Source: Acidobacteriota bacterium | Lineage (GTDB): Bacteria; Acidobacteriota; Vicinamibacteria; Marinacidobacterales; Marinacidobacteraceae | Direction of reading: 5' to 3' | DNA: 64,000 bases | NCBI GenBank assembly: GCA_022822745.1 | Contig: JAJEAO010000005.1 | Location: forward strand, 17,831-81,830 | Translations under genes and position numbers: made by a program | Notes under the pieces: generated by a model | What the model was told of the DNA's origin: nothing | Seen by the model: the letters and a program-made list of their open reading frames with translations, nothing else | Databases searched by the model: none | Shown: one piece after another, positions 22,878 to 63,049 of the stretch | Layout: the number at the start of each line of letters is the position of its first letter | Position numbering within the stretch: position 1 is the stretch's first letter

Positions 22878-22887
22878 TCTCGCCGCC

Positions 22888-46270: not shown

Positions 46271-46326
46271 CCGGCCCCGGTAAACTTGCCGGTTCGTTTG
46301 CCCCCCAGCATCCGGAGGTCCGCCCA

Positions 46327-49300
46327 ATGAGAACCGTCGCGCCGTTCGCGCTCGTGGTCGCACTGCTTCCCGCATTCGCCCTCGCCCAGGGCAGTCACCG
46401 GGACTACGACGAGCACTTCGATGAGGCCAACGTCACCGTCCCGTCGGAATACACCGAAGGGCTCCGATTCCGCAACGTCGGGTTCACGCGGGGAGGACGC
46501 TCCACCGCTGTGGCTGGAGTCGTGGGGGATCCGCTGACCTACTACTTCGGGGGAACCGGGGGCGGTGTCTTCAAGACGACCGACGCCGGCCATTCGTGGC
46601 ACAACGTGAGCGACGGGTTCTTCGGCGTGGGCTCGGTGGGTTCCATCCGGGTCGCCCGTTCGGACACGAACGTCATCTATGTGGGCACCGGCTCGGCCTC
46701 GCCGCGCGGAAACATCTCGGTCGGTGACGGCATGTACCGCTCCGACGACGCGGGCAGGACCTGGGCGCATGTGGGACTCCGGCACGCCGGACAGATCGGC
46801 GCCCTGGCGATCCATCCGGACGATCCCGACCTCGTCTATGCGGCTGCGCTGGGGTACATCTTCGGCCCCAACGACGAACGGGGCATCTACCGGACGAAGG
46901 ACGGCGGCGAGACCTGGGAGCAGGTGCTCCATGTCTCCGACCGCACCGGCTTCGTGGAGATCCAGATGGATCCGAACAACCCGCGGATTCTCTACGCCGG
47001 AGCGTGGCGCGCCGAGCGGAAGCCGTGGACCATGATCTCCGGCAGTGAGGACGGCGGGATCTTCCGCAGCCGCGACGGTGGGGACACCTGGGAGCGCCTC
47101 GACGAGAACGGGCTGCCCCCCGGCATGATCGGCAAGACGGCGGTCGCCATTTCTCCAGCGAACTCCGACCGCATCTGGGTTCTCCTCGAAGCCGAGGGCG
47201 AGCGCGGGGGGCTGTACCGGTCGGATGACGGCGGAGAATCCTTCACGCGCATCAACGGCGACGCGGCTCTCCGGCAGCGTCCCTGGTACTACATCCACCT
47301 CTACGCTGATCCCCAGGACGAGAACACGGTGTACGTGCTGAACGTGCAGTTCCACAAATCCATAGACGGCGGCCGCACCTTCCCCGAGCGCATCCGGGTG
47401 CCCCACGGCGACAACCACGACCTGTGGATCAATCCCGACAACCGGATGAACATGATCAATTCCAACGACGGCGGCGCCAACGTCAGCTTCGACGGCGGGA
47501 AGAGCTGGACCGATCTGATGGGACAGGAGACCTCCGAGATGTACCGGGTCTATGTGGACGACCAGTGGCCCTATCGCATCTACGGATCCCAACAGGACAA
47601 CAGCACGATCTCGGTGCCCTCCCGCTCCGGATTCGGGGTGGTACCCGACTGGTATCAGGTCGGCGGCTGCGAGAGCGGCCACATCGCCGTGGATCCGCGC
47701 GATCCCGACATCATCTACGCCGGTTGCTACGGCGGCTCGATCACTCGGGTCAACCGCAAGACCGGCGAGGTCCGCCAGATCCTCCACTACCCGCAGCTCC
47801 AGCTCGGGCAGGCGGCCCGCGATCTCGACTACCGGTTCCAGTGGAACGCGCCCATCCGGCTTTCGCCCCACGATCCGGACATCCTCTACCACGCCTCGCA
47901 GGTGGTCCACATGTCGGGGGACGAGGGACAGAGCTGGCGGATCATCAGCCCCGACCTCACCACCAACAACCCGGAGCAACAGGACTACGCGGGCGGCCCG
48001 ATCACCCAGGACGGCACCGGAGTCGAGGTGTACAACACGATCTTCTCCTTCGAGGAGTCGCCGCACACTCCGCGGGAGCTGTGGGCCGGCAGCGACGACG
48101 GCCGGATGCATATCTCCCGCGACCGTGGCGAGACCTGGTCCGAGATCACGCCCGAGGACATGCCCGAGGGCGGCACCGTCAACGCGATCGAGATCTCGTC
48201 GCATGACCCGGCGCGAGTCTTCATCGCGGTGTACCGCTACCGCGAGAACGATTTCCGGCCGTACATCTTCCGCACCAACAACTCCGGGGAGGACTGGGAC
48301 CTGCTCACCGACGGGACCAACGGGATTCCGCCGACCCACCCCACCCGGGCCATCCGCGAGGATCCGGACCGGAAGGGGCTGCTCTACGCGGGCACCGAGT
48401 TCGGCCTCTACGTCTCTTTCGACGACGGCGCCCACTGGCAGCGCTTCCAGAACAACCTCCCCGTGACCCCGATCACCGACCTCCAGGTCCACCGCCAGGA
48501 TCTGGTCATCGCCACCCAGGGCCGTTCCTTCTGGGTGCTCGATGACCTCACGCCGCTGCACCAGATCACCGACGAGGTGATGGCCGCCGATTCGTGGCTC
48601 TACGCTCCGCGCACGGCGTACCGCGGCGGTTTTCTGACCGGCGCCGACATCCGGTATCACCTCAGGGAGGAGCCGGAGTCGGCCATCACGCTGGAGATCC
48701 GGGATTCGGAGGGGAACACCGTGCGGCAGGTCACGGGCCAGCCCGGTGACGCCGCGCCCACCGGTCCGACCTCTCCCTTCGCCTTCTTCTTCGGCGGGGG
48801 CGGAGGCGCCCGGCTGCCGGCGACCGCCGGCCTGAACTCCTTCCGCTGGAACCTCCGGGAGGAGGGCATCCAGCGGCCGGCCGGGGTGGTGCATTGGGGC
48901 GGGACGCCCGGACTCAGTGTCGTCCCGGGAACCTACGAGGTCCGGCTCACCGTGGGGGACGAGACCCGCACCCAGGAGCTCGAGGTGGGCATCCGGCCGA
49001 ACCTCTCGATCGAGGCGGACGACCTCCAGAAGCAGTACGACCTGGGCCAGGAGGTGGCCGGCGAGGTCACGAAGCTCTTCGACGCGCTCAACCGGGTCCG
49101 TGACGTGAAGACCCAGGCGAGCGACATCGTGTCCCGGCTGAACAAGGCGAACCGCGGCGACGAGGATCTGGCTGCGCTCGCGAAGGCGCTCGGCGACCGG
49201 CTGACCGAGATCGAGGAGACGATCACCCAGACCCGGAGCAAGTCGTCGCAGGATCCGATCAACTTCCCGCCTCAGATCGACAATCAGCTCGTGACGCTCT

Positions 49301-49497
49301 ACGGCTACATCGTCCAGGGCAACGACGAGCCCACGGCAGGCGCCTTCGAGCGCTTCAACGACCTGAAGCCCGATCTGGACCAGATCCACAGCGACCTCGA
49401 CGCCGCGATCGCCGAGCATCTGACTCCGTTCAACGCCCGCGTCGCCGAGCTCGACATTCCCGCGATCATCCTCTCGGCGGAAACCTCCGGCTCCTGA
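46327..49497 (+). CDS. secreted BNR/Asp-box repeat protein (sortilin/VPS10-like), paralog of 19776..22877
   Basis: ATG at 46327 with signal peptide (the track ORF opens at 46171). Asp-boxes TTDAGHSW, SDDAGRTW, TKDGGETW, SRDGGDTW, SDDGGESF. ~45-50% identity to the first paralog over the alignable region. Confidence 0.8.
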   Translation: MRTVAPFALVVALLPAFALAQGSHRDYDEHFDEANVTVPSEYTEGLRFRNVGFTRGGRSTAVAGVVGDPLTYYFGGTGGGVFKTTDAGHSWHNVSDGFFGVGSVGSIRVARSDTNVIYVGTGSASPRGNISVGDGMYRSDDAGRTWAHVGLRHAGQIGALAIHPDDPDLVYAAALGYIFGPNDERGIYRTKDGGETWEQVLHVSDRTGFVEIQMDPNNPRILYAGAWRAERKPWTMISGSEDGGIFRSRDGGDTWERLDENGLPPGMIGKTAVAISPANSDRIWVLLEAEGERGGLYRSDDGGESFTRINGDAALRQRPWYYIHLYADPQDENTVYVLNVQFHKSIDGGRTFPERIRVPHGDNHDLWINPDNRMNMINSNDGGANVSFDGGKSWTDLMGQETSEMYRVYVDDQWPYRIYGSQQDNSTISVPSRSGFGVVPDWYQVGGCESGHIAVDPRDPDIIYAGCYGGSITRVNRKTGEVRQILHYPQLQLGQAARDLDYRFQWNAPIRLSPHDPDILYHASQVVHMSGDEGQSWRIISPDLTTNNPEQQDYAGGPITQDGTGVEVYNTIFSFEESPHTPRELWAGSDDGRMHISRDRGETWSEITPEDMPEGGTVNAIEISSHDPARVFIAVYRYRENDFRPYIFRTNNSGEDWDLLTDGTNGIPPTHPTRAIREDPDRKGLLYAGTEFGLYVSFDDGAHWQRFQNNLPVTPITDLQVHRQDLVIATQGRSFWVLDDLTPLHQITDEVMAADSWLYAPRTAYRGGFLTGADIRYHLREEPESAITLEIRDSEGNTVRQVTGQPGDAAPTGPTSPFAFFFGGGGGARLPATAGLNSFRWNLREEGIQRPAGVVHWGGTPGLSVVPGTYEVRLTVGDETRTQELEVGIRPNLSIEADDLQKQYDLGQEVAGEVTKLFDALNRVRDVKTQASDIVSRLNKANRGDEDLAALAKALGDRLTEIEETITQTRSKSSQDPINFPPQIDNQLVTLYGYIVQGNDEPTAGAFERFNDLKPDLDQIHSDLDAAIAEHLTPFNARVAELDIPAIILSAETSGS

Positions 49498-50205: not shown

Positions 50206-50940
50206 GTGGACGGGATCCAGGACGGCGACGCGCCGCTGCTCGAACTCGACCGGGTCACGAAGCGGTTCCCGCAGGCGGACGGCTCCCGGCTGACGGTCCT
50301 GCGGGAGGCCTCGCTCACGCTCCGCAGCGGGGCGACCTGCGCGGTGGCCGGTCGCTCCGGCAGCGGCAAGAGCACGCTCCTGCATCTCGCCGCGGGTATC
50401 GAGACCCCGAGCGAGGGCGCGGTGCGGCTCGCGGGACGCGATCTGGGAGCGCTCTCCGATCGGGCCCGCAGCCGCCTGCGCGGCCGGATGGTGGGGCTGG
50501 TCTTCCAGTCCTTCCACCTCCTTCCCTACCTCACCGTGCGGGAGAACGTGCTCCTGCCCGCGCGCATCCACGGCGTGCGCGAAGTCGTCGGGGCGCCGGA
50601 GGGTCGCGCCGACCCCGGCGCCGCCGCCGATCGCCTGCTCCAGGAGGTGGGCCTCCGGGACCGGAGCGGCGAACCGGCCCGAACCCTCTCCGGGGGCGAG
50701 ATGCAGCGGACCGCGATCGCCCGCGCCCTCCTCCTCGGACCGCCGCTGGTCCTCGCCGACGAACCGACGGGCAGCCTCGACGCCGCCTCGGCGCACGCCG
50801 TGACCGACCTCCTGTTCCGGCTCGTCGGCGAGCGTCGCATAGGTCTGATCCTCGCCACGCACGCCCCCGAACTCGCGGCGCGCTGCGCGATCCGGCTCCG
50901 GCTCCTCGCCGGACGCCTCCTGCCCGGACCGGCGGATTGA
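50206..50940 (+). CDS. ABC transporter ATP-binding protein (MacB/LolD-like)
   Basis: Walker A GRSGSGKST, signature LSGGEMQR, Walker B LVLADEPTGSLD. Confidence 0.85.
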   Translation: MDGIQDGDAPLLELDRVTKRFPQADGSRLTVLREASLTLRSGATCAVAGRSGSGKSTLLHLAAGIETPSEGAVRLAGRDLGALSDRARSRLRGRMVGLVFQSFHLLPYLTVRENVLLPARIHGVREVVGAPEGRADPGAAADRLLQEVGLRDRSGEPARTLSGGEMQRTAIARALLLGPPLVLADEPTGSLDAASAHAVTDLLFRLVGERRIGLILATHAPELAARCAIRLRLLAGRLLPGPAD

Positions 50941-53528
50941 TCCGCCTCGCCCTCCGGACGGCGGCGGCCCGGTTCCGCGCCGCCCCGGCGCTGACGGCGC
51001 TCACGGTGGTCGCGATCGCTCTCGGATCGGCGGCGGTGCTCTCGGTCCAGCTCCTGAACCGGGCGTCGCTCGCAGCCCTCGACGCGAGTCTCGAAGCCGT
51101 TTCTCCGGGCGCCGACCTCCGCCTGGAGGCGGTCACGACGGGCGAGGGGATGCTGCCCGACGAGGCCTGGCTCCATGCTCTCGCGCTCCCGGGCGTCGAG
51201 AGCGCGTCGCCGATCGTGCGTCTCCGCCGGGTCGCGGTGAGCGCGGGCGAGGCCTCGCCCGAGGTCCCGCTCGAGATCCCGCTCGAGATCCCTGTCGTCG
51301 GCGTGGATCTGATGTCGGCCGGCTTCGCCTTCGCAGCGGCGCCGGGCGAGGCGGCAACCGCGTTTTCCGCCGACTCCTTCCTCACCGGCGGCGTCACGCT
51401 GCCACGATCCGCGGCGGACCGATTGGGAGTCGTTCCGGGCGAGGAGGTTCGTCTGGACCATCGCGGCCGCATTCGGAGTGTCCCGGTCGCGGGGATCCAC
51501 GGGACGGCGGACGGGGAGGAGACGGCGGGCGAGGCCGCATTCCTGGATCTCGCATGGGCGCAGGCGCTTCGCGGCGCTCCCGGGCTCGACCGGATCGAAA
51601 TCGCGATCCGGGGCGGCGCGGACGCCGCCGCGGTCACGGACGGCCTCGAAACCGCGATCCCGGGGGCGCGGGCCACATCGGGAGCAGCACTCCGGGAAGA
51701 GGGAGCGGATCTCTTCGCCGCGTTCCGACTGACCCTGACGGCGCTCTCGACGGTGAGTCTGCTCGTCGGTTCGTTTCTGGTGTATGCGAGCGTGCGGGCC
51801 GGGCTCGCGGCGCGCCGACGGGAGATCGGCCTCTACCGGTCGCTCGGCGCTCCGGTGCGCTCCGTGGGCGGGCTTCTCGCCGCCGAGGTCGCGCTCACCG
51901 CGCTCGTCGGCGGAGGGATCGGGGTCCCTCTCGGCGCCGCGGCGGCCGGGCTGTCCCTCGGACGGGTCGAGTCCGTGCTCACGAGCTTCTACCTGCTGGA
52001 TCGCATCGGGCAGGTGGGCGTCACGCCGGGCGTCGCGCTGGCATCCGTAGGCCTCGCCCTCGGCGCGGCGCTCCTCGGGGCGCTCCCGGAGATCGTCTCC
52101 GCCGCCCGCCGCCCCCCGGCCGCGCTGCTCGCACCGGGGCGCTCCGTCGCGCTGCGCCTCCGGAAATCGAGTCGGCGGTGGCCGACCTGGGTCGGCGCGG
52201 CGCTCGCGGTCTTCGGCATCTCGGCGCTCGCGCCGGAGTCGTGGCCGTGGCTTCCGGCGTCGCTCGGAGGAGGGTTCGCGGCGGCTGGCGCTGTCCTGCT
52301 GGGGGCCGCCATCCTGTGTCGTCCGGCGCTCGCGCTCCTCTCCCGGCTGTCGGCCCGTCTCGAGGGCCGCTCGCCCTTCGCGCGGGGTCTCCGGGCCGCG
52401 GTGCGGGAGCCCGGCGCCACCGCCCCTCCGGCCACGGCTCTCCTGATCGCAGTGGCCATGCTCGTCGGCGTCTCCTCCATGATCGCGAGTTTCCGCACGA
52501 CGCTGGAGGTGTGGCTCGACGAGACGCTGGTGGCCGACCTCTATGTGGCGCGGCCCGGGCGCTTCGGCGAACCCGGCGGCGTCCCGCTCCCGCTTGCTCC
52601 GGAGAGCGTGGAGATTCTCGCCGGCGATCCGGCGGTGGCCCACCACGACACCCTGCGGGCGCTGCGCGTCCGGCTCGATGGCCGGCTGACCTCGGTCGCG
52701 GGCGTCCGGACGGAGATCCCGGGGGCCGGGGAGCGGTTCTCGTTTCTCGGCGATCGGGACGCGGCTCTCGCCGGTCTGCTCCGCGGGGATGCGCTGGTGT
52801 CCGAACCACTGGCCCGCCGCCTCGAGCTGTCCCCCGGAGCCACGCTCCTCCTGCCGACTCCCGGAGGCGCGAGGCCGGTGCGGGTCGCCGGGGTCTATCG
52901 GGACTACGGCAACGAGGGAGGCGGCGTCATCCTCGATCGGGCCCGGGTGAACGCCCTGTTTCCGACGCCCGGGCCGCCTCCGGTCCACGGCGTGGCGCTG
53001 ACCCTGCGCCCGGAAGCGGAGCCGGCCGCCGTCGCCGCCGGCCTGCGGGAGCGCCTCCCGGTCGCCCTGGACATCGTCGAGAACGATGCGCTGCGAGCTC
53101 GGGCCCTCGTCATCTTCGACGAGACCATGGCGGTCACCGGGCTGCTCCGCCGGTTCGCGCTGTTCATCGCGGCGCTCGGGGTCGCCCTCCTGCTGTGGGC
53201 GCTGGCGCGGGAGCGGGCGGCGGAGACCGCGCTGCTCCGGGCGCTGGGCGCCAGTCGCGCTCAGGCCGCCGGGGAGTTCTTCGGGCGGGGCGCCGTCGTC
53301 TCGCTGGTTGCGCTGGGCCTCGGCGGCGCCGCCGGCGCGGCGCTCTCGGCTCTTCTGGCGCTCGTGGTGAATCCCGCGTGGTTCGGCTGGACGGTGGATC
53401 TCCACTGGCCGATCGGGGCGTTTGCCGGGCAGGCGGCGGTCGTGCTCGTCGCGGGACTTCTCGCCGCCGCCCTGCCGGCTCGCCTCGCCGCGCGGGTCAG
53501 CGCGACCTCCCTGGTGCGCGAACTGTGA
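50937..53528 (+). CDS. ABC transporter permease with duplicated FtsX domains (MacB-like, ~860 aa)
   Basis: TTG start overlapping the ATPase stop (TTGA). Two 4-TM FtsX modules separated by large extracytoplasmic domains. Confidence 0.85.
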   Translation: MIRLALRTAAARFRAAPALTALTVVAIALGSAAVLSVQLLNRASLAALDASLEAVSPGADLRLEAVTTGEGMLPDEAWLHALALPGVESASPIVRLRRVAVSAGEASPEVPLEIPLEIPVVGVDLMSAGFAFAAAPGEAATAFSADSFLTGGVTLPRSAADRLGVVPGEEVRLDHRGRIRSVPVAGIHGTADGEETAGEAAFLDLAWAQALRGAPGLDRIEIAIRGGADAAAVTDGLETAIPGARATSGAALREEGADLFAAFRLTLTALSTVSLLVGSFLVYASVRAGLAARRREIGLYRSLGAPVRSVGGLLAAEVALTALVGGGIGVPLGAAAAGLSLGRVESVLTSFYLLDRIGQVGVTPGVALASVGLALGAALLGALPEIVSAARRPPAALLAPGRSVALRLRKSSRRWPTWVGAALAVFGISALAPESWPWLPASLGGGFAAAGAVLLGAAILCRPALALLSRLSARLEGRSPFARGLRAAVREPGATAPPATALLIAVAMLVGVSSMIASFRTTLEVWLDETLVADLYVARPGRFGEPGGVPLPLAPESVEILAGDPAVAHHDTLRALRVRLDGRLTSVAGVRTEIPGAGERFSFLGDRDAALAGLLRGDALVSEPLARRLELSPGATLLLPTPGGARPVRVAGVYRDYGNEGGGVILDRARVNALFPTPGPPPVHGVALTLRPEAEPAAVAAGLRERLPVALDIVENDALRARALVIFDETMAVTGLLRRFALFIAALGVALLLWALARERAAETALLRALGASRAQAAGEFFGRGAVVSLVALGLGGAAGAALSALLALVVNPAWFGWTVDLHWPIGAFAGQAAVVLVAGLLAAALPARLAARVSATSLVREL

Positions 53529-54712
53529 TGCCGGCTCGGTCACCCGTCGCGCTCGTGCTCGCGACGGCGATCTTCGTCGCGGCTGTCCCGCTCGCCGGCC
53601 AGGAGCCGCAGGAACCCGCGTTCCGGCCCACCGATCCCGGCCACGTGTGGCAGTTTCCGCGCGATCACTGGTTCCACGACGGCTACCGAACCGAGTGGTG
53701 GTACTTCGTCGGATTCCTGTCTGCGGACGACGGAAGCCGCCGCTTCGCCTGGCAGCTCACGCTCTTCCGCAGCGGCCTCCCTCCGGCGGACGGCTCGCCG
53801 GCCCCGTCCCGGTGGGCGGCGAGGAGCACGGCCATGGGGCACCTCGCCCTCGCCGACCTCGATTCGGGAGAGCGCGAGTTCGTCCAGGTGGTGTACCGCG
53901 AGGCGCCGGGGCTCGCCGCCTTCCATCCCTTCCCGGGTGGAGCTGGGGGCGAGATCGCTCGAACCCCGGGTCCGCCGGGCACGGCGTCGCGGTGGGAGCT
54001 GGCCTTCGACCCGGACCGGCGGGCATTCACGATGGCGGCGGCGGACGGTGCCGCCGGAGTCGGTCTGGAGCTGACCGCCCGCATCACCGCTTCGCCGCTC
54101 TTCCACGGTCCCCGCGGCTACCACGAGAAGTCTCCCGGCGGGGGGGCGAGCCTCTACTACAGCCACACCCGGCTCGAGGTCTCGGGCCGGGTTCGCCTCG
54201 GCGGCGCGATGATCGCGGGCTCGGGGACCGGCTGGCTGGACCGCGAATTCGGCTCGTCGTGGCTCGCAGCGGAACAGATCGGCTGGGACTGGTTCGGCCT
54301 CACGCTCGATGACGGCCGGGATCTGATGGTCTATCTCCTCCGCCGCGAGGACGGCTCCGTCTCCTGGGCCAGCGGCACCCTGCGCGACCCGGCGGGAGAC
54401 ACGATCGAGCTGGAGGGCCCGGAAGTCGAGGCTCTCGGGGAGTTCCGTCCGGAGGATCTGGAGGAGGGCGGCCGGCCCTATCCCGCCGGATGGCGCCTCC
54501 GGGTCCGGTCCGAAGAGCTCGACCTGCGCGTGCTGCCGCTCCTCGCCGATCAGGAAAACCGCCTCGGGGCAGGGGAGTCGGGACCCGACATCCCCTACTG
54601 GGAGGGCGCCGCCGAGGTGCTCTCGTGGGACCGGGGGGCCGTTCTCGGTCGGGGCTTCGTCGAGCTCACCGGCTACCGCACACCGATCCCGGCTCTTCTC
54701 GGCGGCCAATAG
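53528..54712 (+). CDS. AttH-like secreted protein (lipocalin-like / CrtC hydroxyneurosporene-synthase-like domain)
   Basis: ATG overlaps the permease stop (TGATG); signal peptide; HWFHDGYRTEWWYFVG block typical of the AttH/CrtC family. The track ORF 51554..54712 is mostly a shadow of the permease. Confidence 0.65.
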   Translation: MPARSPVALVLATAIFVAAVPLAGQEPQEPAFRPTDPGHVWQFPRDHWFHDGYRTEWWYFVGFLSADDGSRRFAWQLTLFRSGLPPADGSPAPSRWAARSTAMGHLALADLDSGEREFVQVVYREAPGLAAFHPFPGGAGGEIARTPGPPGTASRWELAFDPDRRAFTMAAADGAAGVGLELTARITASPLFHGPRGYHEKSPGGGASLYYSHTRLEVSGRVRLGGAMIAGSGTGWLDREFGSSWLAAEQIGWDWFGLTLDDGRDLMVYLLRREDGSVSWASGTLRDPAGDTIELEGPEVEALGEFRPEDLEEGGRPYPAGWRLRVRSEELDLRVLPLLADQENRLGAGESGPDIPYWEGAAEVLSWDRGAVLGRGFVELTGYRTPIPALLGGQ

Positions 54713-54756: not shown

Positions 54757-55971
54757 ATGAGGATCGAGAGCATCGAGCTCCGCAACTACCGGGTCTTTCG
54801 TCGGGCGCGGCTCGATCACCTGCCCCGGATGGCGGTCGTCGTCGGGGCCAACGGCTCGGGAAAGAGCACGCTGTTCGATGCCTTCAGCTTCCTGAAGGAT
54901 GCCCTCCAGGACAACGCCCGGGTGGCGGTCGCCCGGCGGGGAGGGTTCCGGGAACTCGTGAGTCGGGGCGAAAGGGGCCCGATCGCCGTGATTCTCAAGT
55001 TTCGGGAGAGCGGAGGTCGGCTGGCCACCTACTCGCTCGAGGTCGGCGAGGCGGGCGGGAGAGTCGTCGTCGAGCGCGAGATCCTGCGCTACCGGCGCGG
55101 CCAGAAGGGCAAGCCGTGGCACTTCGTGGACTTCCGTCGAGGGGAGGGGACCGCCATCACGAACGAGGCTCTCTATGGGCAGACGGGTGTGGAAGAGGAG
55201 CGTGAGGAGTTCTCCCTGGAAGACCCGAGCATCCTCGCGATCAAGGGCCTCGGCCAGTTCCGCAGTTTCCCCGTCGTCGCCGAGTTTCGGAACCTGATCG
55301 AGAACTGGCACATTTCCGACTTCCGGATCGCCGATGCTCGGGTGAGTTCCGAGGCGGGATTCGCGAATCATCTGTCGGCGCGAGGCGACAACGTGGCGCT
55401 TGTAGCCCAGCATCTCCACGAATCGCACCCGGACCGATTCGAGGCGGTCCTTCGAGCGATGCGGCTGCGGGTTCCCGGAGTGCGGGATGTCGAAGTCCGA
55501 TCCACCGAGGATGGCCGGATGGTGCTGCGGTTCCGCGACGGGGAGTTCAAGGACCCGTTCATCGCCCGATACGTCTCCGACGGGACGATCAAGATGTTCG
55601 CGTACCTGGTTCTGCTCCACGATCCCAAGCCGCATCCCTGCCTGGCGGTGGAGGAGCCGGAGAACCACCTGTATCCGGTGTTGCTCCGCGAGCTTTGCGA
55701 GGAGTTCCGCGACTACGCCGGCGGCGGAGGACAGGTGTTCGTGTCAACCCACTCGCCCGAATTCCTGAACGCGGTGGAGCTCGACGAGATCTACTGGATG
55801 GGAAGACGCGGTGGGTTTTCGATGGTGCGTAGAGCCTCCGAAGACGAGATCCTCCGGAACCTGATCGAGGCGGGCGATGTTCCGGGCGACCTCTGGCGAC
55901 GGGGCTGCTTCGACGATGTCCGTGCCTGGCAGGGCGCATCGCCGGTCGTTCCATGGGCCGAGGTGACGTGA
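54757..55971 (+). CDS. AAA_21/OLD-family-like ATPase (SMC/RecF-type ABC ATPase fold), no partner gene
   Basis: Walker A VVVGANGSGKSTLFDAF; D-loop/Walker B LAVEEPENHLYP; H-loop STHSPEFL. Stop overlaps the ldcA ATG (TGATG). Confidence 0.7.
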   Translation: MRIESIELRNYRVFRRARLDHLPRMAVVVGANGSGKSTLFDAFSFLKDALQDNARVAVARRGGFRELVSRGERGPIAVILKFRESGGRLATYSLEVGEAGGRVVVEREILRYRRGQKGKPWHFVDFRRGEGTAITNEALYGQTGVEEEREEFSLEDPSILAIKGLGQFRSFPVVAEFRNLIENWHISDFRIADARVSSEAGFANHLSARGDNVALVAQHLHESHPDRFEAVLRAMRLRVPGVRDVEVRSTEDGRMVLRFRDGEFKDPFIARYVSDGTIKMFAYLVLLHDPKPHPCLAVEEPENHLYPVLLRELCEEFRDYAGGGGQVFVSTHSPEFLNAVELDEIYWMGRRGGFSMVRRASEDEILRNLIEAGDVPGDLWRRGCFDDVRAWQGASPVVPWAEVT

Positions 55972-56990
55972 TGACCCGACGTTCTCTGCTTGCTCTCGTT
56001 GGCTCCATCGGGCTCGGTTGGAGCCGAGGCACAGCAGCTCAGCTTCCCGGCACGCTCACGCGTCCGCCACGGCTTCGCGACGGGGACGTGATCGGGTTGA
56101 CCAGTCCGGCGACGGCGGCCTGGGAGACAGACCCGATGGAGGTGTTCATGGACGCCTTCCGCGAGATCGGCCTCGAACCGCGGCTCGGGCCGAACTTCTA
56201 CGGGAGGCGCGGCTACTTCGCGGGGACCGACGAGCAGCGGGCGTCCGACATCATGGGCTTCTTCGAGGATCCCGGAGTGCGGGGCATCTTCGCCCGCGGC
56301 GGCTGGGGCTCGGCGCGCGTCCTCCCGCTCCTCGACTACGACGTGATCCGGGCGAACCCGAAGGTGCTCCTCGGCTACTCCGACGCCACCGCCCTCATCA
56401 CCGGCGTCCATGCGAAGACGGGCCTGATCACGATGCACGGTCCCGGCCCCGGAAACCGGTTCTCCACCCAGCACTTCCAGAGTGTGCTGATGGAAGGAGA
56501 CGCGGATCTGCTGGTGAACCTGGCCGCCGACCCGGGCGACCACATCGTGAACCGCGAGCACCGCACTCGCACGATCACGCCTGGCGTCGCGCGGGGCCGG
56601 CTCGTCGGCGGCAACCTGACCGTCCTCTCCGCGATCGTGGGCTCGGACTACCTGCCCGACTTCACCGGGGCCATCCTGTTCCTCGAAGATGTGGACGAAG
56701 CGGTGTACCGGGTGGATCGGATGCTCACGACGCTCCGCCTCGCGGGCCTCCTCGACCGAATCGCAGGCTTCGTCTTCGGTCGCTGCACCAACTGCGACCC
56801 GTCTTCGGGCTTCGGCTCGCTGACGCTCGAAGAGGTCCTCGCGGACCACATCGCTTCGCTCGGCATCCCCGCCTTCCGGGGCAGCATGATCGGCCACATC
56901 CCCGAGCAGTTCACCCTCCCCATCGGCGGCCTCGCCGAAGTGGATGCCGACGCCGGAACGATCCGCCTTCTCGAACCCGCCGTCATCTGA
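55971..56990 (+). CDS. ldcA: LD-carboxypeptidase (peptidase S66)
   Basis: Tat/Sec-like signal MTRRSLLALVGS; nucleophile block LLGYSDATALI; catalytic His region near the C-terminus. Confidence 0.8.
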   Translation: MTRRSLLALVGSIGLGWSRGTAAQLPGTLTRPPRLRDGDVIGLTSPATAAWETDPMEVFMDAFREIGLEPRLGPNFYGRRGYFAGTDEQRASDIMGFFEDPGVRGIFARGGWGSARVLPLLDYDVIRANPKVLLGYSDATALITGVHAKTGLITMHGPGPGNRFSTQHFQSVLMEGDADLLVNLAADPGDHIVNREHRTRTITPGVARGRLVGGNLTVLSAIVGSDYLPDFTGAILFLEDVDEAVYRVDRMLTTLRLAGLLDRIAGFVFGRCTNCDPSSGFGSLTLEEVLADHIASLGIPAFRGSMIGHIPEQFTLPIGGLAEVDADAGTIRLLEPAVI

Positions 56991-57020: not shown

Positions 57021-58757
57021 TTGGGCCGAGCGCTTACGATCCCTGCTTCTCGCTCCGAATCCCCCCAGCCGATCGTGACCAGCCCGCAAGGTTCCAATTC
57101 GGCTTCGTCAGGCGACGCCGTGACGGAGGCGGTGCTCGCGGTCCGCGATGGCCTTGAGCGAGAGATCTACCAGCGCAGGTCCGACGTTGCCAGCGCGGTG
57201 GGCCGGCTCCTTACGGCGCTTGGATGGGATGTCTTCGATCCGAGGCAGGTGAGTCGCAACTACCCGACCGGCAACCAGCGGCTCGATTTCGCACTCTTCC
57301 CTACCGCGGATCGGCCCCTCGTGGTCATCGACACCAGGAAGGGCACCGGTCCGCGAGTTGGCGGCGCCACGATCCTGCTCGAGTTCTGTCGCGGCCAGGA
57401 CATTCCGCTTGCTGTGCTCACGAATGCCCGCAGGTGGCTCCTCTACTCCGCGAGTGGCAGCGCCGGGAATGGTGACGGCTGCTTCCTCCAGCTCGATCTT
57501 CTCGACGAGGCACCGCCGGATGTCGCTCAGCACTTGACACGCCATCTCGCACGGAGTCAAGTGGAGTCTGGCCGCGCACAGGCCGCGGCCGAGGCAGCCC
57601 TGGAAGAGATCCGCGGGCAGAGCCGAGCTGCCCGCTCCTTCGAGCCGGTCCTCAGGACGATGGTGGAGGGGCCGGACGACTCTCTAGTCGATCTGTTCTG
57701 TGCGCGCGTGGAAGAGACGAGCGGAGCTCGGCCCGCTCGCGACGCTGCGTCCGTGTTCCTCGCGCGGACACTCGACGTCACAACCTCGTCCTCAAGGTCG
57801 CAAACAGAGACACGCTCTGCGAAGTCCGCTCCGCCGTCATCAGACGGATCGCGAAGTCCGGAGCTGACCATGTTCGGCCGGACGTCTCATCCGTCATCCG
57901 GTAAGGACCTTCTGGTCGATGTGTTCGCCGAGCTGGCGCGGCGCGACGAGGGCTTCTGTCACCGGTTTGCGTCGGCGCACCGGGGTCGGACCCGGCGTTA
58001 CTTGGCGCGCGCCCGAGCTCGGCTCTACCCGGGGAATCCCGAGTTCGCCAGGAAGTTTGCAGAAGAGCTACCGGGCGGCTGGTGGATCGCAACCCAGAAC
58101 AGTAATCGAGGAAAGCGCCAACTCATTCAGAAGGCGTGCGCGGTGGCGGGCGTCGGATTCGGAACCGACGTCATCGTTCGGCTCCCGACGATTCGGCGAA
58201 GCGCGGGGAGCAGAAGTAGTCGGGGATCGAAGGTCGCGACACCGCCGGCGTCTGGAGGAGGAGGCGTCGCCCCCAAGTCTCCGCAGCCTGGTCAGATCAG
58301 ACCGACGGGGACCGGCCGTTTCGTGCTCACTCTCGAAGGAAGTGTCCGACGATTCCCGAGCGGAGTGGCAGCCCTGGTGGCCGCGTTCGAGTGGTTCGCA
58401 TCCCGGGATGCCGGATTCCTGGAGCGGTTCGCCCGTGAAGTCCGAGGGACTTCCGTCCACTACGTGGCGCGCGATCGAATGCGGATGTACCTGAGCCGAC
58501 CGAAGGCAGGGCCGAAGAACTCGGCGGCCCTGTCCCGTGGCTGGTGGATCGCCACGCAGAACAGCAGTGCCCAGAAGAAGAGTCTGATCCGACGCGCCTG
58601 CGAACTGGCGGGCCTGAAGTGGGGACAGGACGTTCTCGTGGATTTCCCGGCCCATCACCGCTATCGCAAGAAAAAGGGCCCTACCGCCAAGCACTCCTCC
58701 AACGAATCCGCCGAGGCGATTCTCGAGGCTCTCCGTTCGCGCCGCAGCGTCCGCTGA
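57021..58757 (+). CDS. HsdR_N-like PD-(D/E)xK nuclease-fold protein with a tandemly duplicated C-terminal domain of unknown function
   Basis: N-terminal block RLDFALF...LVVIDTRKG...LAVLTNARRWLLY matches the type I HsdR N-terminal / Mrr-like PD-(D/E)xK pattern. Two ~105-aa repeats share F.RFA...Y.AR.R.YL...GWWIATQNS..K..LI..AC..AG. Start uncertain (TTG 57021, or GTG 57072 / 57117). GC3 clearly lower than in native genes. Confidence 0.6.
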   Translation: MGRALTIPASRSESPQPIVTSPQGSNSASSGDAVTEAVLAVRDGLEREIYQRRSDVASAVGRLLTALGWDVFDPRQVSRNYPTGNQRLDFALFPTADRPLVVIDTRKGTGPRVGGATILLEFCRGQDIPLAVLTNARRWLLYSASGSAGNGDGCFLQLDLLDEAPPDVAQHLTRHLARSQVESGRAQAAAEAALEEIRGQSRAARSFEPVLRTMVEGPDDSLVDLFCARVEETSGARPARDAASVFLARTLDVTTSSSRSQTETRSAKSAPPSSDGSRSPELTMFGRTSHPSSGKDLLVDVFAELARRDEGFCHRFASAHRGRTRRYLARARARLYPGNPEFARKFAEELPGGWWIATQNSNRGKRQLIQKACAVAGVGFGTDVIVRLPTIRRSAGSRSSRGSKVATPPASGGGGVAPKSPQPGQIRPTGTGRFVLTLEGSVRRFPSGVAALVAAFEWFASRDAGFLERFAREVRGTSVHYVARDRMRMYLSRPKAGPKNSAALSRGWWIATQNSSAQKKSLIRRACELAGLKWGQDVLVDFPAHHRYRKKKGPTAKHSSNESAEAILEALRSRRSVR

Positions 58758-58775
58758 TTGACGCGAGGAGCTCGC

Positions 58776-61238
58776 ATGCAAGCACAGCACATTGACTTTC
58801 TTGAACTCCTGGATGGGAAGGTGCACTATGTCGTGCCCCGATGGCAGCGTCGCTACCGATGGGGCTACACCGACATCGAGCGCCTCGTGGAGGATCTGGT
58901 AACGATCGCTGCCGTGGATCGTCCCCACGCGGCGCACTATGGGGGGACGCTTCTCACGTTCACGGAAACAGGGGCTGCGGGCGTGGTCAAGACCATCAGA
59001 GTCGTGGACGGCCAGCAGCGCCTCACGACGGTGAGCCTGCTTCTGGACTGTATTTCGGATGCGATCGGCCCGGACGGGAGCATTGGCGAGTGGACTGCGG
59101 CAGAGATTCGTGACTGCCTGTTCAACCCCAAGGTCAAGCGCGGTCCCAAGCGTCTCAAGCTGAGGCTGCAGACGGGGGACGCCGAGGAGTATCGACGCTG
59201 CCTCAACGGAGATCGGAATGGGCCCGGGACGGTGGCGGCAGCGTGGAGGATCGCCCGCAGGTTGTTGGTGCGCAAGAGGGGCGCGGCGTCAGTGCTTCGC
59301 GGACTCCAGCGGTTTCGGGTCGTCAGCATCGGGCTCGAATCGCCCGAGGATCCACAACAGATCTTCGAGAGTCTGAATGCCACCGGCCGTCCGCTGACCG
59401 AGACCGAGAAAATCAAGAACTGGATCCTCATGGGCCTGTCGGACGTGGAGCAGGAGGAGGTGCACGATGACTCGTGGTTGGCCTTCGAGCGGCGCCTCGG
59501 GGCCCGGCATACGACGGAGCCCTCTGACCTGTTCTTCCGCGACTTCCTGCGGTGGAAGACCGGGCAGGTTCGCGGGACGAGCCGAGTCTACGAGGACTTC
59601 CGGCGATGGGCGGTCGGCCGGCAGCTCGACCGGAGCAGGCCAGCGCTCTGTCGGAGACTGGCACGGCTCGCCGGACTCTACGGGAAACTCACGGGGGCCA
59701 ACGGGTCGTACGCGGACGATGGCGTGGAGAAGCAGCTCGTTCACCTGCGTGACATGGGGTTGCATGTCCACCGACCGATGACCCTGCGGCTCCTCCACGA
59801 TGCGTCACAGAACGCGGGCCCGGTCTTGACCGGTGACGAGCTGGCTGCCGTGCTCGCCGGGGTCGGCACCTGGCTCACGCGCCTCTGGCTTGCGGATCGG
59901 CCGTTGAATGCCGTAAACCGCGCCGCGACCCACCTCGCCAAGGCGGGGGGGCCGGGAGAGAGTGACGCGCCGGTGGAATACTGGCTGGAGCGGATTCGCC
60001 GCCTGCAAAACACCCGAGCGGAAGTTCCGGATGACGACGCCGTGCGTCAGGGGATCCGTACTCGGAAGGCGTACGGAGGCAGGTCGACTGGCTCTGCGTC
60101 CGCGGTCTTGTGGGCGCTCGTGGACCACGAGCACGGAAAGGAGCGCCTGTCACGGCAAGGCATAACGATCGAGCACGTGATGCCGCAGAGACTCACGGCG
60201 GGCTGGCGGCGCGACCTAGGACCGACCGCCGAGGAGGTTCACGGTCTCTACCGGGATCGGCTGGCGAATCTGACGCTGACGGGCTACAACCCGGAGCTTG
60301 GCGCGCAGCAGTTCGAGTCGAAGCGGGCGCTGTATGAGAAGAGTGCCATCCACATGACGCGGCGCGTGGCGCGCTCCGACCAGTGGGGCAGAAACGAGAT
60401 GGAGCAGCGCGCGGAAGATCTGACCGAGCGAGCCCTGAAACTATGGAGATGGAGTGGGCCGGGGCACGAGCGCTCCCCGGACTCCTCCGCACTGCGCTGG
60501 AGGATCGATCAGGAGCCGTGGAGGACCGAAATGGCCGCCAGTCAGATGGTGCTGAACGTGGTGTCCGCCTTGCTGACCATGGATCCGGCGAACGCGCAGA
60601 AGCTCACTGGACCCGCAGTCACGGTGGACCTGCATTCGGCCGGTGATCTGCCCAAGGGGCATAGCCAGACCCTTCGTTCCGTGCCGGGACATGCGGGCTA
60701 CGTTCTGTATCCCTACGACCAGAACCACCCGCAGAGTGCGAGGCGTTGTGAGGAGTTCGGCCAGCGGTGCGATGTTCGGGTCGAAGTGGAGCATCGCAGA
60801 CAGAGTCATCCGGAGAGCCTCTGGCAATTCATCAAGAGGCGAACCGGCAGACTGCCTGGGCAGAAGGACACCTGGAAGGGCCCCTCCCAGTGGACTGGAC
60901 CTTACGAGCCACTCGGGGACTGGATTCTCGTGTACGTAGGGAACCCCGATTGGATCTGGTTGTTCATCCGCGCCGATGAGGGCGAGGCAACCCCTGAGCG
61001 ATCAGCGAGAATGCTGCGCTATTCGCGAGCGATCCGTTCCGAGATGGGAGACCAGACTCCGGGATGGGAGACGCAGGAAAAGGGGGCAGCGCACGGACGC
61101 TCTCTATCGGTCAGGCGGGCTTGGGATCGGGATGACCGGGATGCCTGGCCTGAAGCCGTGGACTGGCTCGCCGAACAGCTCGGACGCATGCGACAAATCC
61201 TGGAGCGGATTGGGGCGGCGGCGGACCGAGCCGAGTGA
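58776..61238 (+). CDS. GmrSD-family type IV (modification-dependent) restriction endonuclease, DUF262 + DUF1524
   Basis: GAGGAG 6 nt upstream of the ATG. DUF262 motif VVDGQQRLTTV; C-terminal His-Me finger region ITIEHVMPQ (DUF1524). 820 aa; lower GC3. Confidence 0.85.
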   Translation: MQAQHIDFLELLDGKVHYVVPRWQRRYRWGYTDIERLVEDLVTIAAVDRPHAAHYGGTLLTFTETGAAGVVKTIRVVDGQQRLTTVSLLLDCISDAIGPDGSIGEWTAAEIRDCLFNPKVKRGPKRLKLRLQTGDAEEYRRCLNGDRNGPGTVAAAWRIARRLLVRKRGAASVLRGLQRFRVVSIGLESPEDPQQIFESLNATGRPLTETEKIKNWILMGLSDVEQEEVHDDSWLAFERRLGARHTTEPSDLFFRDFLRWKTGQVRGTSRVYEDFRRWAVGRQLDRSRPALCRRLARLAGLYGKLTGANGSYADDGVEKQLVHLRDMGLHVHRPMTLRLLHDASQNAGPVLTGDELAAVLAGVGTWLTRLWLADRPLNAVNRAATHLAKAGGPGESDAPVEYWLERIRRLQNTRAEVPDDDAVRQGIRTRKAYGGRSTGSASAVLWALVDHEHGKERLSRQGITIEHVMPQRLTAGWRRDLGPTAEEVHGLYRDRLANLTLTGYNPELGAQQFESKRALYEKSAIHMTRRVARSDQWGRNEMEQRAEDLTERALKLWRWSGPGHERSPDSSALRWRIDQEPWRTEMAASQMVLNVVSALLTMDPANAQKLTGPAVTVDLHSAGDLPKGHSQTLRSVPGHAGYVLYPYDQNHPQSARRCEEFGQRCDVRVEVEHRRQSHPESLWQFIKRRTGRLPGQKDTWKGPSQWTGPYEPLGDWILVYVGNPDWIWLFIRADEGEATPERSARMLRYSRAIRSEMGDQTPGWETQEKGAAHGRSLSVRRAWDRDDRDAWPEAVDWLAEQLGRMRQILERIGAAADRAE

Positions 61239-61283
61239 ATTGGCCATGCGTGAGGCGGACGCATCGGCGCCGCTTGATACCGG

Positions 61284-61565
61284 TCAGGGCCGAGATGGTG
61301 TTCGGGGGCGGGCCCGGCTCGAGTCGTAGGAGGCCTGCCGTCGGAGCCAGAAGGCCGTGTTGGACCACCCGGCCCTCTCCAGACGCGCCGCCACATCCGG
61401 TGAAATGGCGGCGTGGCCACCCAGGATCCGCGAGAGTGCGTCGCGGGCGACGCCGAGCATCTGCGCCGCTTCGTCCACGCTGAGACCCATGGCGTCCATG
61501 CAGTTCTCGCGGATACTCCGACCGGGGTGGGGTGGGTGGCGCATGGTGATGGCCGGTTGCCTCAC
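61284..61565 (-). CDS. HigA-family HTH antitoxin
   Basis: MRHPPHPGRSIRENCMDAMGLSVDEAAQMLGVARDALSRILGG...FWL matches the HigA (antidote) family. First ATG gives an ATGA overlap with the upstream ORF; an alternative ATG lies 21 nt downstream. Confidence 0.7.
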   Translation of the reverse strand: MRQPAITMRHPPHPGRSIRENCMDAMGLSVDEAAQMLGVARDALSRILGGHAAISPDVAARLERAGWSNTAFWLRRQASYDSSRARPRTPSRP

Positions 61566-61810
61566 TTCTTCCAGACCTTGGCCACATCGGGCTTCACGGT
61601 GACGTATGCCGCCAGCTTGCGTCCGTCGGCGATCTGAGCCGAAGCGTTCGGAGGACCAGCCAGTGCGGCGATGCGAGCAGCGTTCGTGCCTGCTTCCATG
61701 ATGTCCCGATCGAAGAGCGTTCCGTACAACTGCTCGTGCGCCGTCTTGTGGCCGGCCGGTGCGGAGCGTCGCATCGTTTGGAACTTGGTGACGAGGTCTG
61801 ATTCGGTCAT
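61562..61810 (-). CDS. hypothetical 82-aa protein, candidate toxin partner of the HigA-like gene
   Basis: Position and 4-nt overlap only. The sequence does not resemble canonical HigB/RelE. Confidence 0.35.
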   Translation of the reverse strand: MTESDLVTKFQTMRRSAPAGHKTAHEQLYGTLFDRDIMEAGTNAARIAALAGPPNASAQIADGRKLAAYVTVKPDVAKVWKK

Positions 61811-62171
61811 CGGTAGAGTCTCCGGGGTCGCGGCGAGGTGGTCGTGGCCGGAGTTCGCCGACTCTTTCCGGCTGGCGTTCCGCTGTGGCTCTGGTCGTAC
61901 AGCTCCGTACCGGGCGATGTCATCCTCTTCGAACAGAGCTCGTGTCTTGTCGATGTTCCGGCGCGGGCCGGAGCCGACCGGCGGCCCGTCGAGCGGCCCG
62001 TCCCAGTGGGAGCAATGGAGGAAGTGTACTGCGCGCCGTGGCGAATCAGTGCGTCATTCCGGCCGTGACGCGGCTTTCGGGGGCACCTCGCGCCGCCGTC
62101 TGGTTCCCGCTTTCGGGGGCGTCTCAGGGTGAGTGGATGCGGTTGGCCGCTCGATCCCGGAGACGGCTCGT

Positions 62172-62675
62172 TCAGCTCGGGTCCGGGTCGTGCAGCGTGT
62201 GGAGGAAGCGCTCGAACCGCTGCAGGTCGCGCAGGACGAGAGGGTGGACCTGATGGAGCTTGGCGATCAGGAAGTCCATGCGATCCCAGTCGTACTCCAT
62301 CTCGAAGTAGTAGCGCTTGAAGTGCCGGAAACGCAGCAGTTCCAGGAGCAGCGGCAGCGCCTCGTCCGACACCGCCGCCACGCGGACGCCCTCGATCTCG
62401 AGGTTCATTCGCTCGAGAAGATCGCGATGCCAACGCTCAGGCCGAAGCCGGTTCTCGAAGTGCTGCGAGATGCGCACGAAGGCAGTTTCCAGGCAGGTGT
62501 AGTAGTTCTCCAGGAGGCTTGCGGCAATCAGGGCCGAGACCGGTGTCCTTCCGAGGCGCGGAATCTCGTCGGCGAGGGCGCTCTCGAGCGCGTCGCGGAC
62601 CTGGTCGAGCCGTCGCCGGTGGAGCCGGACCTGGGCGAGCAGCTCAGCCGTCGCCGCGTTCATGGACCAGCGCAC
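62172..62675 (-). CDS. HEPN-like nucleotidyltransferase substrate-binding protein (HI0074-like)
   Basis: 167 aa, all-helical. Putative R-x(4-6)-H in ELLRFRHFKRYY. Overlaps the upstream MNT gene by 32 nt. Confidence 0.6.
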   Translation of the reverse strand: MRWSMNAATAELLAQVRLHRRRLDQVRDALESALADEIPRLGRTPVSALIAASLLENYYTCLETAFVRISQHFENRLRPERWHRDLLERMNLEIEGVRVAAVSDEALPLLLELLRFRHFKRYYFEMEYDWDRMDFLIAKLHQVHPLVLRDLQRFERFLHTLHDPDPS

Positions 62676-63033
62676 CTCGGGTGCGGATCTGTTCGGCGAT
62701 TTCCTTCGGCACCTTCTCCATCTCGATCACGTCCACCGGGAGGGTCGTGCCGTCCATCGCGATCCCGAGCACGCGGAAGAACTCGGCGGGGCCAGAGAGT
62801 CCCTCGACGGCGAGATCGATATCCGAGATCTCGCTGAAACGCGACCGATCGAGGAGCGATCCCCACTGGTAGATGCGGCGCGGGTTCACCTCCTCGACGA
62901 TCGCTGCGATGATCTCTTTCGCATCCCGGTTCGCCCGCTCGAAACGGGCCTCGATCCGGGCTTGGCGCCGTTCCTCCTTGCGTGCGAGGAAGGCTCGCGC
63001 CTGATCGAGATCAATGCCGAACTCGCTGTTCAC
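62644..63033 (-). CDS. minimal nucleotidyltransferase (MNT, Pol-beta superfamily)
   Basis: GS...D.D motif in YQWGSLLDRSRFSEISDIDLAVEG. Confidence 0.75.
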   Translation of the reverse strand: MNSEFGIDLDQARAFLARKEERRQARIEARFERANRDAKEIIAAIVEEVNPRRIYQWGSLLDRSRFSEISDIDLAVEGLSGPAEFFRVLGIAMDGTTLPVDVIEMEKVPKEIAEQIRTRGALVHERGDG

Positions 63034-63049
63034 GGCCGGCTCGGCCCGA

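Follow-up and report, generated by a model that had tools for sequence, protein, structure and literature searches.

A partnerless HEC-01-type ABC ATPase gene upstream of ldcA in an Acidobacteriota genome is probably the remnant of an ATPase-DUF4276 pair

RESULTS

An intact ABC ATPase gene at the edge of a variable island

We analyzed a 64,000-nucleotide stretch of DNA from an Acidobacteriota bacterium (the window) and focused on an ATPase gene whose end meets the start of a gene for an LD-carboxypeptidase (Table 1). The ATPase start at ATG 54757 fits the family N terminus MRIESIELRNYR, and residue 1 is where the alignment begins in all homologs. A preliminary description made from the letters of the sequence had read the motifs GANGSGKST, LAVEEPENHLYP, and STHSPEFL in this frame and had placed the protein among the AAA_15/AAA_21 ATPases. 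The motifs are there, and Pfam confirmed the placement. AAA_21 matched along its entire model (positions 1 to 304 of 304) at 2.9e-34 with 119.9 bits (cutoff, 27), and AAA_15 matched at 5e-20 with 72.9 bits (cutoff, 32.1). With both scores above the gathering thresholds and with Walker A, signature, Walker B, and H-loop motifs in place, the protein is a member of AAA_21/AAA_15. In an alignment of 31 sequences including that of the window, residues G30, A31, N32, G33, G35, K36, and T38 of Walker A and T331, H332, S333, and P334 of the H-loop region were invariant. Within the Walker B/D-loop region, the window protein has H304 where at least 95% of the family has a conserved glutamine.

The AlphaFold model of the ATPase (mean pLDDT, 75) has the fold of an ABC head. 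Searching the PDB with this model via Foldseek returned generic ABC heads only, the best being those of Rad50 and SMC proteins (E of ~1e-11; TM, 0.45 to 0.5) and PtuA (8eea and 8ee4; E of ~1e-10; TM, 0.35 to 0.40). Neither the fold search nor a sequence search of the PDB found a close solved relative; the sole match by sequence was SMC1A, over residues 4 to 87.

As the preliminary description had proposed, a lower-GC island has its edge at this gene. Its GC content is 0.652, followed by 0.682 for ldcA and ~0.65 for each of the next two genes, compared to 0.72 to 0.75 for the three genes upstream. The order of those upstream genes (ABC_tran, MacB/FtsX, and AttH/CrtC) is conserved in the related loci L001 to L004. 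Downstream, PADLOC models matched the defense-island cargo from 57120 to 61238 (Orf5, 311 bits; HEC-06, 150 bits). Homology to a 546-amino-acid protein of the related locus L090 suggests that the first gene after ldcA probably starts at GTG 57120 and not at TTG 57021, which would make the gap after ldcA ~129 nucleotides and not 30. At the place of this SeqA-like protein and the GmrSD protein, L001 has Schlafen/AlbA_2 genes. The region between the flanks is thus a variable island whose content differs among relatives.

Table 1. Features of the ATPase-ldcA region, in window positions
Feature	Position	Strand	Remarks
EF-P	44745-45317		Flank
Sortilin/BNR	46171-49497		Flank
ABC_tran	50206-50940	+	Pfam; upstream, higher GC
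MacB/FtsX permease	50937-53528	+	Pfam; upstream, higher GC
AttH/CrtC lipocalin protein	53528-54712	+	Pfam; upstream, higher GC
HEC-01-type ABC ATPase gene, partnerless, intact	54757-55971	+	404 aa including the 14-residue read-through tail
Walker A/P-loop GANGSGKST	54844-54870	+	Residues 30 to 38; from translation
Walker B/D-loop region LAVEEPENHLYP	55639-55674	+	Residues 295 to 306
H-loop region STHSPEFL	55744-55767	+	Residues 330 to 337; from translation
Deletion scar	55922-55959	+	38 nt; DNA alignments to L001, L002, L003, and L176
Read-through tail WQGASPVVPWAEVT and new stop	55927-55971	+	C-terminal comparison with L002, L003, and L176
S66 LD-carboxypeptidase (LdcA-like)	55971-56990	+	339 aa; Pfam S66 N- and C-terminal domains
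HSDR_N-like protein with two SeqA_C-like repeats	ORF from 57021, probable start 57120, to 58757	+	Pfam SeqA, 1.1e-08
GmrSD-type (DUF262 + DUF1524) protein	58758-61238	+	GmrSD_N, 8e-25; GmrSD_C, 1.6e-21
Aminotran_5	63050-63982	-	Flank

The ATPase belongs to the HEC-01 family

The PADLOC search that the preliminary description had suggested gave a clear family assignment. Model PDLC04144 (HEC-01 ATPase) matched over its full length at 553 bits (8e-167), with residues 1 to 388 of the window protein aligned to model positions 1 to 392 of 395, and a second HEC-01 model, PDLC04182, scored 403 bits. HEC-01 ("Hma-embedded candidate 01" in PADLOC-DB v2) was described by Payne et al. as a candidate two-gene system, an ABC ATPase with a Toprim-like protein, that is embedded in Hma systems (bioRxiv 10.1101/2024.01.29.577857). 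In E. coli assays, the only published test, HEC-01 gave no protection against the phages tried (bioRxiv 10.1101/2024.01.29.577857). For this reason, a defense role of the intact module is one that we infer.

The family is large. A protein database holds more than 8,000 homologs of the ATPase, typically of 391 amino acids and ~72% identical, and the best 120 of these are almost all 390 to 391 amino acids long and 71 to 75% identical to the window protein. Among GTDB species representatives, we collected 80 loci with the ATPase from at least 15 phyla, at 64 to 72% identity. The family is of patchy distribution over phyla, at ~70% identity, within defense islands.

The family-wide partner is a DUF4276 gene that the window lacks

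Using the partner proteins of L002, L003, and L006, we built a DUF4276 HMM and applied it to all ORFs of the 80 GTDB loci. Two loci were left out as unassessable, one for a contig end and one for an N-masked stretch. In 58 of the remaining 78 loci, a full-length, same-strand DUF4276 gene starts at or overlaps the ATPase stop; the partner is split, truncated, or displaced in 13 and absent in 7. The normal partner of this ATPase is thus a DUF4276 (Toprim) protein of ~190 amino acids. DUF4276 is a Toprim-superfamily domain with a conserved E and DxD (PMC12065111), and pairs of an ABC ATPase with a Toprim protein are a recognized class of defense systems (PMC11464382; bioRxiv 10.1101/2024.01.29.577857) that includes PARIS AriA/AriB, MADS3-4, AbiL, and OLD/Gabija (PMC11464382). 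The partner proteins of the relatives hit Pfam DUF4276 at ~1e-14, above its threshold, match PADLOC PDLC04143 (HEC-01 Toprim) at 204 bits, and have both the Toprim glutamate (LVEE) and the DxD (RDQD). The ATPase/DUF4276 pair is also unusually conserved in sequence, with 66 to 72% identity over at least 15 phyla.

No such gene was found in the window. The HMM from the relatives had no match among ORFs of 50 or more amino acids in all 64 kb, and Pfam, PADLOC, the DUF4276 HMM, and tblastn agreed with the earlier observation that no Toprim, HNH, or DUF4276 gene is next to the ATPase. The preliminary description had also suggested looking for a TOPRIM or HNH fragment in the gap after ldcA or inside the ATPase C terminus. 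At the protein level, tblastn found no partner remnant between 55.8 and 57.2 kb, both of those places included; the only debris is a 38-nucleotide scar, described below. A weak tblastn match to the partner at 24307 to 24630 (E = 0.001) is in frame within a type I phosphodiesterase gene (22816 to 25023), and we discarded it as chance. Of the two genes that define HEC-01, then, the ATPase is present and the adjacent Toprim-like (DUF4276) gene is not. The window gene is, by its sequence, the ATPase half, still intact, of a candidate two-gene module already known, and the locus represents a known candidate family in degenerate form, not a new system.

A deletion scar replaces the partner gene

We compared the window to loci with the same gene order. 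In L003 and L004, whose ATPases are 77% identical to that of the window, the order is ABC_tran, MacB/FtsX, AttH, ATPase, DUF4276 (193 amino acids), S66, and SeqA-like protein, with the DUF4276 stop overlapping the S66 start. L002 (ATPase 86% identical) has the same order. Its partner lies in a 625-nucleotide uncalled gap as an intact, GTG-initiated DUF4276 ORF, which rules out that it is a pseudogene. In L176 (ATPase 88% identical) and in the second of two copies in L090, the order is again ATPase, DUF4276, and S66. The only compared syntenic relative that shares the absence of the partner is L001 (99% identical), which also shares the ATPase-ldcA junction and the extended ATPase C terminus of the window.

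At the DNA level, homology between the window and its relatives reaches ~55921, at the ATPase end, and resumes at ~55960, 11 nucleotides before the ldcA ATG. The relatives have ~620 nucleotides at this site, with the whole DUF4276/Toprim gene, of which ~580 nucleotides are gone in the window and L001. The scar that is left has the same sequence in both, so the loss is older than the divergence of the window from L001 but younger than their split from the 88% relative. When aligned to the partner gene of L176 or of L090 copy 2, the scar gave a z of ~4, a score reached by none of 500 shuffles, and its pieces matched gene positions ~100 to 118, 423 to 440, and 472 to 479 in collinear order. Alignment to the partner genes of the more distant L002 and L003 was not significant. 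From these alignments, the scar looks like collinear debris of the partner gene, and the separate fragments suggest that several deletions followed one another, as opposed to a single clean excision. At the breakpoints, GATGTCCG and ATCGCCGG can be read by eye as microhomology, of which we make no claim.

The deletion also explains the end of the ATPase. L002, L003, and L176 end in GCFDDAHP followed by a TGA stop, at which position the window has TGG (codon 391). With this stop lost, the frame gains 14 residues before it terminates on the ldcA start codon. Disorder is predicted for the tail (pLDDT below 50 for residues 387 to 404 of the AlphaFold model). The overlap of the ATPase stop with the carboxypeptidase start was correctly described before: the TGA at 55969 to 55971 and the ATG at 55971 to 55973 share one base (TGATG). 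Because the partner gene abuts or overlaps the ldcA start in the relatives, it is the deletion that incidentally produced this overlap.

The module region occurs twice in L090, once intact and once in degraded form. In the degraded copy (copy 1), an ATPase remnant of ~77 residues is fused immediately ahead of the S66 gene, which is kept and is followed by a homolog of the SeqA-like protein of the window. Deletions at the ATPase-ldcA junction are thus recurrent, with the ldcA start spared each time.

ldcA is a resident gene and not the partner of the ATPase

The LdcA-like protein is a member of the S66 family, as both Pfam domains matched (Peptidase_S66 PF02016, 5e-33 and 114 bits; PF17676, 5e-37 and 128 bits) and GYSDAT, FLEDV, and IGHIP, the context of the Ser-Glu-His triad, are visible in its translation. 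It is not an equivalog of E. coli LdcA (PRK11253, 145 bits versus a cutoff of 378). Its N terminus, MTRRSLLALVGSIGLG, reads as a twin-arginine signal-like motif that is conserved in orthologs; LdcA is thus probably exported, while the ATPase would be cytoplasmic.

Orthologs of LdcA in L091 and L092 (75 to 76% identity) lie in the same chromosomal region, between Sortilin/BNR on one side and aldo-keto reductase/amino acid permease genes on the other, with no ATPase or DUF4276 gene upstream. The window has the same flanks (EF-P, Sortilin/BNR, and Aminotran_5; Table 1). Within 6 kb of the ATPase, an S66 gene was found in 0 of the 80 GTDB family loci. The ATPase is not a conserved housekeeping neighbor of ldcA, a possibility raised in the preliminary description. 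Taken together, ldcA is a resident gene of the region, the module is cargo, and ldcA is not the partner of the ATPase. It should not be given a defense role in annotation.

The ATPase shows no detectable decay

The ATPase ORF is intact and keeps every motif residue that is invariant in the 31-sequence alignment. Of 177 columns with conservation of 95% or more, it deviates at seven (E204N, A247V, L255M, Q304H, R323G, L348M, and K350R), compared to four in each of the partner-bearing L002 and L003; seven is toward the top of the family range of zero to nine but within it. Its dN/dS relative to L002 is 0.077, and those of the flanking genes are 0.14 to 0.20. Tajima's relative-rate test counted 21 versus 14 unique changes (P = 0.24), and the flanks were no different. 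The intact ORF, the retained motifs, and the low dN/dS mean that the gene could still be under selection. The ATPases of the window and L001 are 5 nucleotides apart (2 synonymous and 3 nonsynonymous changes), too few to judge selection after the deletion. The ATPase is thus an uneroded remnant, and either the loss was recent or the gene is still useful.

In this family, the nuclease seems to be lost more often than the ATPase

Among the 78 assessable loci picked by an intact ATPase, 20 had no intact partner, a class that may be inflated, as many of the "broken" partner loci are long-read MAGs, in which frameshift errors are common. We ran the reverse test on 80 metagenome loci picked by an intact DUF4276 gene, 54 of which were assessable. 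The ATPase was intact in 52 and frameshifted in 2, and no locus lacked it. By Fisher's exact test on these two sets, which come from different collections and are uncorrected for phylogeny, partner and ATPase loss differed for disrupted or absent genes (P = 7e-4) and for absent genes only (P = 0.04). The HEC-01 pair therefore seems to lose its nuclease gene much more often than its ATPase gene, which fits a costly effector. Partnerless ATPases also deviate slightly more at conserved columns (mean of 3.4 versus 2.0; one-sided P = 0.014, uncorrected for phylogeny).

There is a small chance that HEC-01 modules systematically shed the Toprim effector while the ATPase is kept (20/78 versus 2/54). 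If true, this would point to an effector that is costly or self-toxic or to a second role of the ATPase.

DISCUSSION

The most probable history of the locus

We believe that the ATPase is very probably the remnant of a HEC-01 pair whose partner was deleted, i.e., a case of ordinary gene decay as opposed to a new pairing. The preliminary description had offered a decayed defense system or a new ATPase-effector pairing. The former is borne out by the HEC-01 match, the partner in relatives, and the scar, while the latter fails on the residence of ldcA and the lack of S66 genes among the 80 family loci. The two genes of the HEC-01 module, for an AAA_15/21-type ABC ATPase and a Toprim-fold DUF4276 protein, are normally translationally coupled. 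In our model, the module was acquired horizontally into the variable island between the Sortilin/BNR and aminotransferase genes, at a site that directly precedes the resident ldcA. The lineage that led to the window and L001 then lost the DUF4276 gene by deletion, probably in several steps, with the scar left as debris and the ATPase frame extended to the ldcA start codon. A need for the immediately upstream sequence in ldcA translation is probably the sole reason why the overlap with ldcA has persisted. The opposite order of events, an ancestral ATPase-ldcA junction with a later insertion of DUF4276, is unlikely because the ATPase-DUF4276 pair is the family-wide state.

By analogy with PARIS AriA/AriB, MADS Mad3/Mad4, AbiL, and OLD/Gabija, the ATPase of an intact module may detect infection while holding or regulating the Toprim nuclease, the presumed effector. 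With the effector gone, the window ATPase most likely gives no defense and would be a recent remnant that is not yet eroded. On this analogy, we are confident that the locus would not function as a defense system. It shows clearly how apparent translational coupling of unrelated genes can be created by a deletion in a defense island.

Other readings of the locus

The orphan ATPase might be functional, through a Toprim/DUF4276 partner or a second HEC-01 copy in trans or through recruitment by the HSDR_N/SeqA-like and GmrSD genes, and we consider this unlikely. The ORF and catalytic motifs are intact, purifying selection is strong along the branch to L002 (omega, 0.077), and the rate is not significantly accelerated; most of this omega signal is older than the deletion, however, and the branch after the deletion holds only five substitutions. 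Complementation in trans is conceivable, as L090 has one degraded and one intact copy of the region and the 64 kb visible here leave room in the genome for a partner, but there is no DUF4276 gene within the window. Orphan ATPases with an intact ORF do recur (7 of 78 assessable genomes), yet the greater deviation of partnerless ATPases at conserved columns, a comparison uncorrected for phylogeny, is consistent with relaxation. Between the window and L001, its 99% identical twin, the downstream genes are not the same, so there is no stable new partnership. The related proposal that selection has kept the ATPase after loss of the nuclease, be it as a stand-alone sensor or decoy, with a nuclease in trans, or with the SeqA-like and GmrSD genes, likewise has only a small chance of being right.

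It is very improbable that the ATPase and LdcA form a new pair, in which an S66 effector would cleave peptidoglycan precursors or, like MccF, an aminoacyl-nucleotide under control of the ATPase. The genes are co-oriented with a stop/start overlap that is kept in both the window and L001, but that overlap stems from the scar, and in the relatives DUF4276 sits between the two genes and abuts ldcA. We found no co-occurrence outside the clade, with no S66 gene near the ATPase in the 80 family loci; LdcA orthologs occur without the ATPase, and L090 copy 1 kept ldcA next to an ATPase of ~77 residues. The probable export of LdcA away from a cytoplasmic ATPase also counts against the pair.

A housekeeping DNA repair ATPase of the RecF, SbcC, or SMC type, a placement that the preliminary description had also raised, is hardly credible. 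The fold resembles Rad50 and SMC heads, and there are weak N-terminal matches to SMC_N and RecF (TIGR00611). All of the repair models nonetheless stay below their cutoffs (SMC_N, 38.5 bits versus 40; RecF, 30 versus 172; SbcC, 18 versus 478; Rad50, ~23 versus 1,000), and the matches are confined to the first 45 to 87 residues (the profile matches to residues 1 to 86, most of them to 1 to 46) or to the generic ABC head. The protein, at 404 amino acids, is without a coiled-coil insertion. The patchy distribution over phyla in defense islands and a GC content below that of the neighboring genes also do not fit a repair gene.

Comparison with known systems

Several defense systems share parts of this architecture. 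Septu PtuA has a similar ABC ATPase fold (8eea and 8ee4 in the Foldseek search), but the NCBIfam model NF041760 scored 36 bits versus a cutoff of 500, over the N-terminal 42 residues only, and no HNH PtuB is adjacent. OLD and Gabija GajA have in common with the window protein an AAA_15/21 ABC head with EEPExxL and STHSP motifs. In those proteins the Toprim domain is fused to the ATPase, whereas Pfam found no Toprim or Toprim_Old domain in the window protein, and GajA models matched only its two ends (1e-16).

PARIS follows the same logic, with an ABC ATPase as sensor and scaffold and, as a separate protein, a small Toprim nuclease as effector (PMC11464382). AriA models matched the window ATPase at 1e-19 to 7e-33, the level of the generic AAA_21 profile. 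AriB is a DUF4435 protein, whereas the partner in the relatives is DUF4276. The mechanism of PARIS is nuclease release and tRNA cleavage. In MADS, Mad3-Mad4 are arranged like the genes of the relatives, with a DUF4276 Toprim protein after an AAA_15/21 ABC ATPase (PMC12065111, PMC11464382). The window ATPase scored 81 bits with PADLOC mad3 and 124.3 bits with NCBIfam MAD3 (NF047739), versus an equivalog cutoff of 420. The best-scoring stretch of the MAD3 match covers only residues 147 to 349, and neither a MADS methylase nor any other MADS gene lies nearby.

HEC-01 is the system to which the locus belongs. The window differs from it in having no Toprim/DUF4276 gene, which makes the system incomplete, and in the 14-residue tail that is foreign to the family. 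The relatives L006 to L009 lie inside a DUF1156-methylase/helicase system, matching the published account of Hma. We therefore propose that the gene be annotated as an orphan HEC-01-type ABC ATPase, the probable remnant of an ATPase and DUF4276/Toprim pair.

Decay and conservation of the HEC-01 pair

Decay of HEC-01, the PADLOC candidate pair of an ABC ATPase and a DUF4276/Toprim protein, looks asymmetric, with the Toprim partner hit more often than the ATPase. The partner was broken or absent in 20 of the 78 ATPase-selected GTDB loci, whereas the ATPase was broken in only 2 of the 54 partner-selected metagenome loci (p = 7e-4), although the "broken" class may be inflated by long-read MAG errors. 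Several orphan loci (L039, L043, L055, and L087) resembled the window in having a read-through tail or a deletion within the partner.

We also observed that conservation of the ATPase/DUF4276 pair is unusually high. The GTDB ATPases are 64 to 72% identical to the window protein across at least 15 phyla, and the taxa with the pair include Latescibacterota, Dehalococcoidia, Planctomycetota, Spirochaetota, Acidobacteriota, Proteobacteria, and Cyanobacteria. ATPase size is almost constant at 390 to 391 aa, both in these loci and among the best 120 of more than 8000 database homologues of the window ATPase.

Viral and duplicated relatives

In IMG/VR, only three viral contigs were found to carry an ATPase relative (52 to 54% identity). 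Of the three, L095 also encodes the DUF4276 partner. L093 and L094 gave no DUF4276 match, and immediately upstream of the ATPase both have another AAA_21-like ORF, a distant relative. In L090, from a related 3.8-Mb genome, the ATPase-S66 region occurs twice, approximately 8 kb apart, with toxin-antitoxin genes in between. In copy 1, the ATPase is reduced to approximately 77 residues and fused ahead of S66, while copy 2 shows an intact arrangement of AttH fragment, ATPase, DUF4276, and S66.

Other features of the variable island and its surroundings

Coordinates of window features and related loci
Feature	Location	Size	Description
Sortilin/Vps10-BNR repeat protein (large)	window 19776-22877	1033 aa	
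Sortilin/Vps10-BNR repeat protein (large)	window 46171-49497	1108 aa	
AttH/CrtC-lipocalin gene	window 53528-54712; L001 6160-7344		
SeqA-like gene	window 57021/57120-58757	~545-578 aa	HSDR_N-like N-terminus
GmrSD-type gene	window 58758-61238	826 aa	DUF262 + DUF1524; PADLOC Orf5 311 bits, HEC-06 150 bits
Stretch between GmrSD and aminotransferase genes	window 61238-63050	~1.8 kb	
ATPase relatives (IMG/VR)	L093/L094:3949-6188; L095:1202-2976		
Double ATPase-S66 region	L090:1-9023		

The second Sortilin gene marks the island's left flank, which is conserved in every relative examined. Between the window and its 99% twin, L001, the AttH/CrtC-lipocalin gene has a dS of 0.148, compared to 0.012 and 0.007 for the adjacent MacB and ATPase genes and 0.062 for ldcA; this contrast suggests a local recombination mosaic between two strains that are otherwise almost the same.

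The SeqA-like protein has two C-terminal repeats similar to the SeqA C-terminal domain, which binds hemimethylated GATC. Its homologues also follow ldcA in L090 and in L003, a syntenic relative. In the window, the GmrSD-type gene starts at zero gap behind the SeqA-like gene, and the two may form a modification-sensing restriction module. In the stretch between the GmrSD and aminotransferase genes, the ORFs (61671-62132, 62133-62837, 62662-63225, and 61807-62433 [minus strand]) had no Pfam match; this DNA may be further island cargo.

HEC-01 model names

Among the PADLOC models of the seed pair, the 190-position PDLC04143 ("HEC-01A") corresponds to the DUF4276/Toprim partner and the 395-position PDLC04144 ("HEC-01B") to the ATPase. 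Other HEC-01 models are named the opposite way, with PDLC04174-84 ("A") being the ATPase and PDLC04191-210 ("B") the Toprim protein. The A/B naming of the seed pair thus looks swapped relative to the remaining HEC-01 models.
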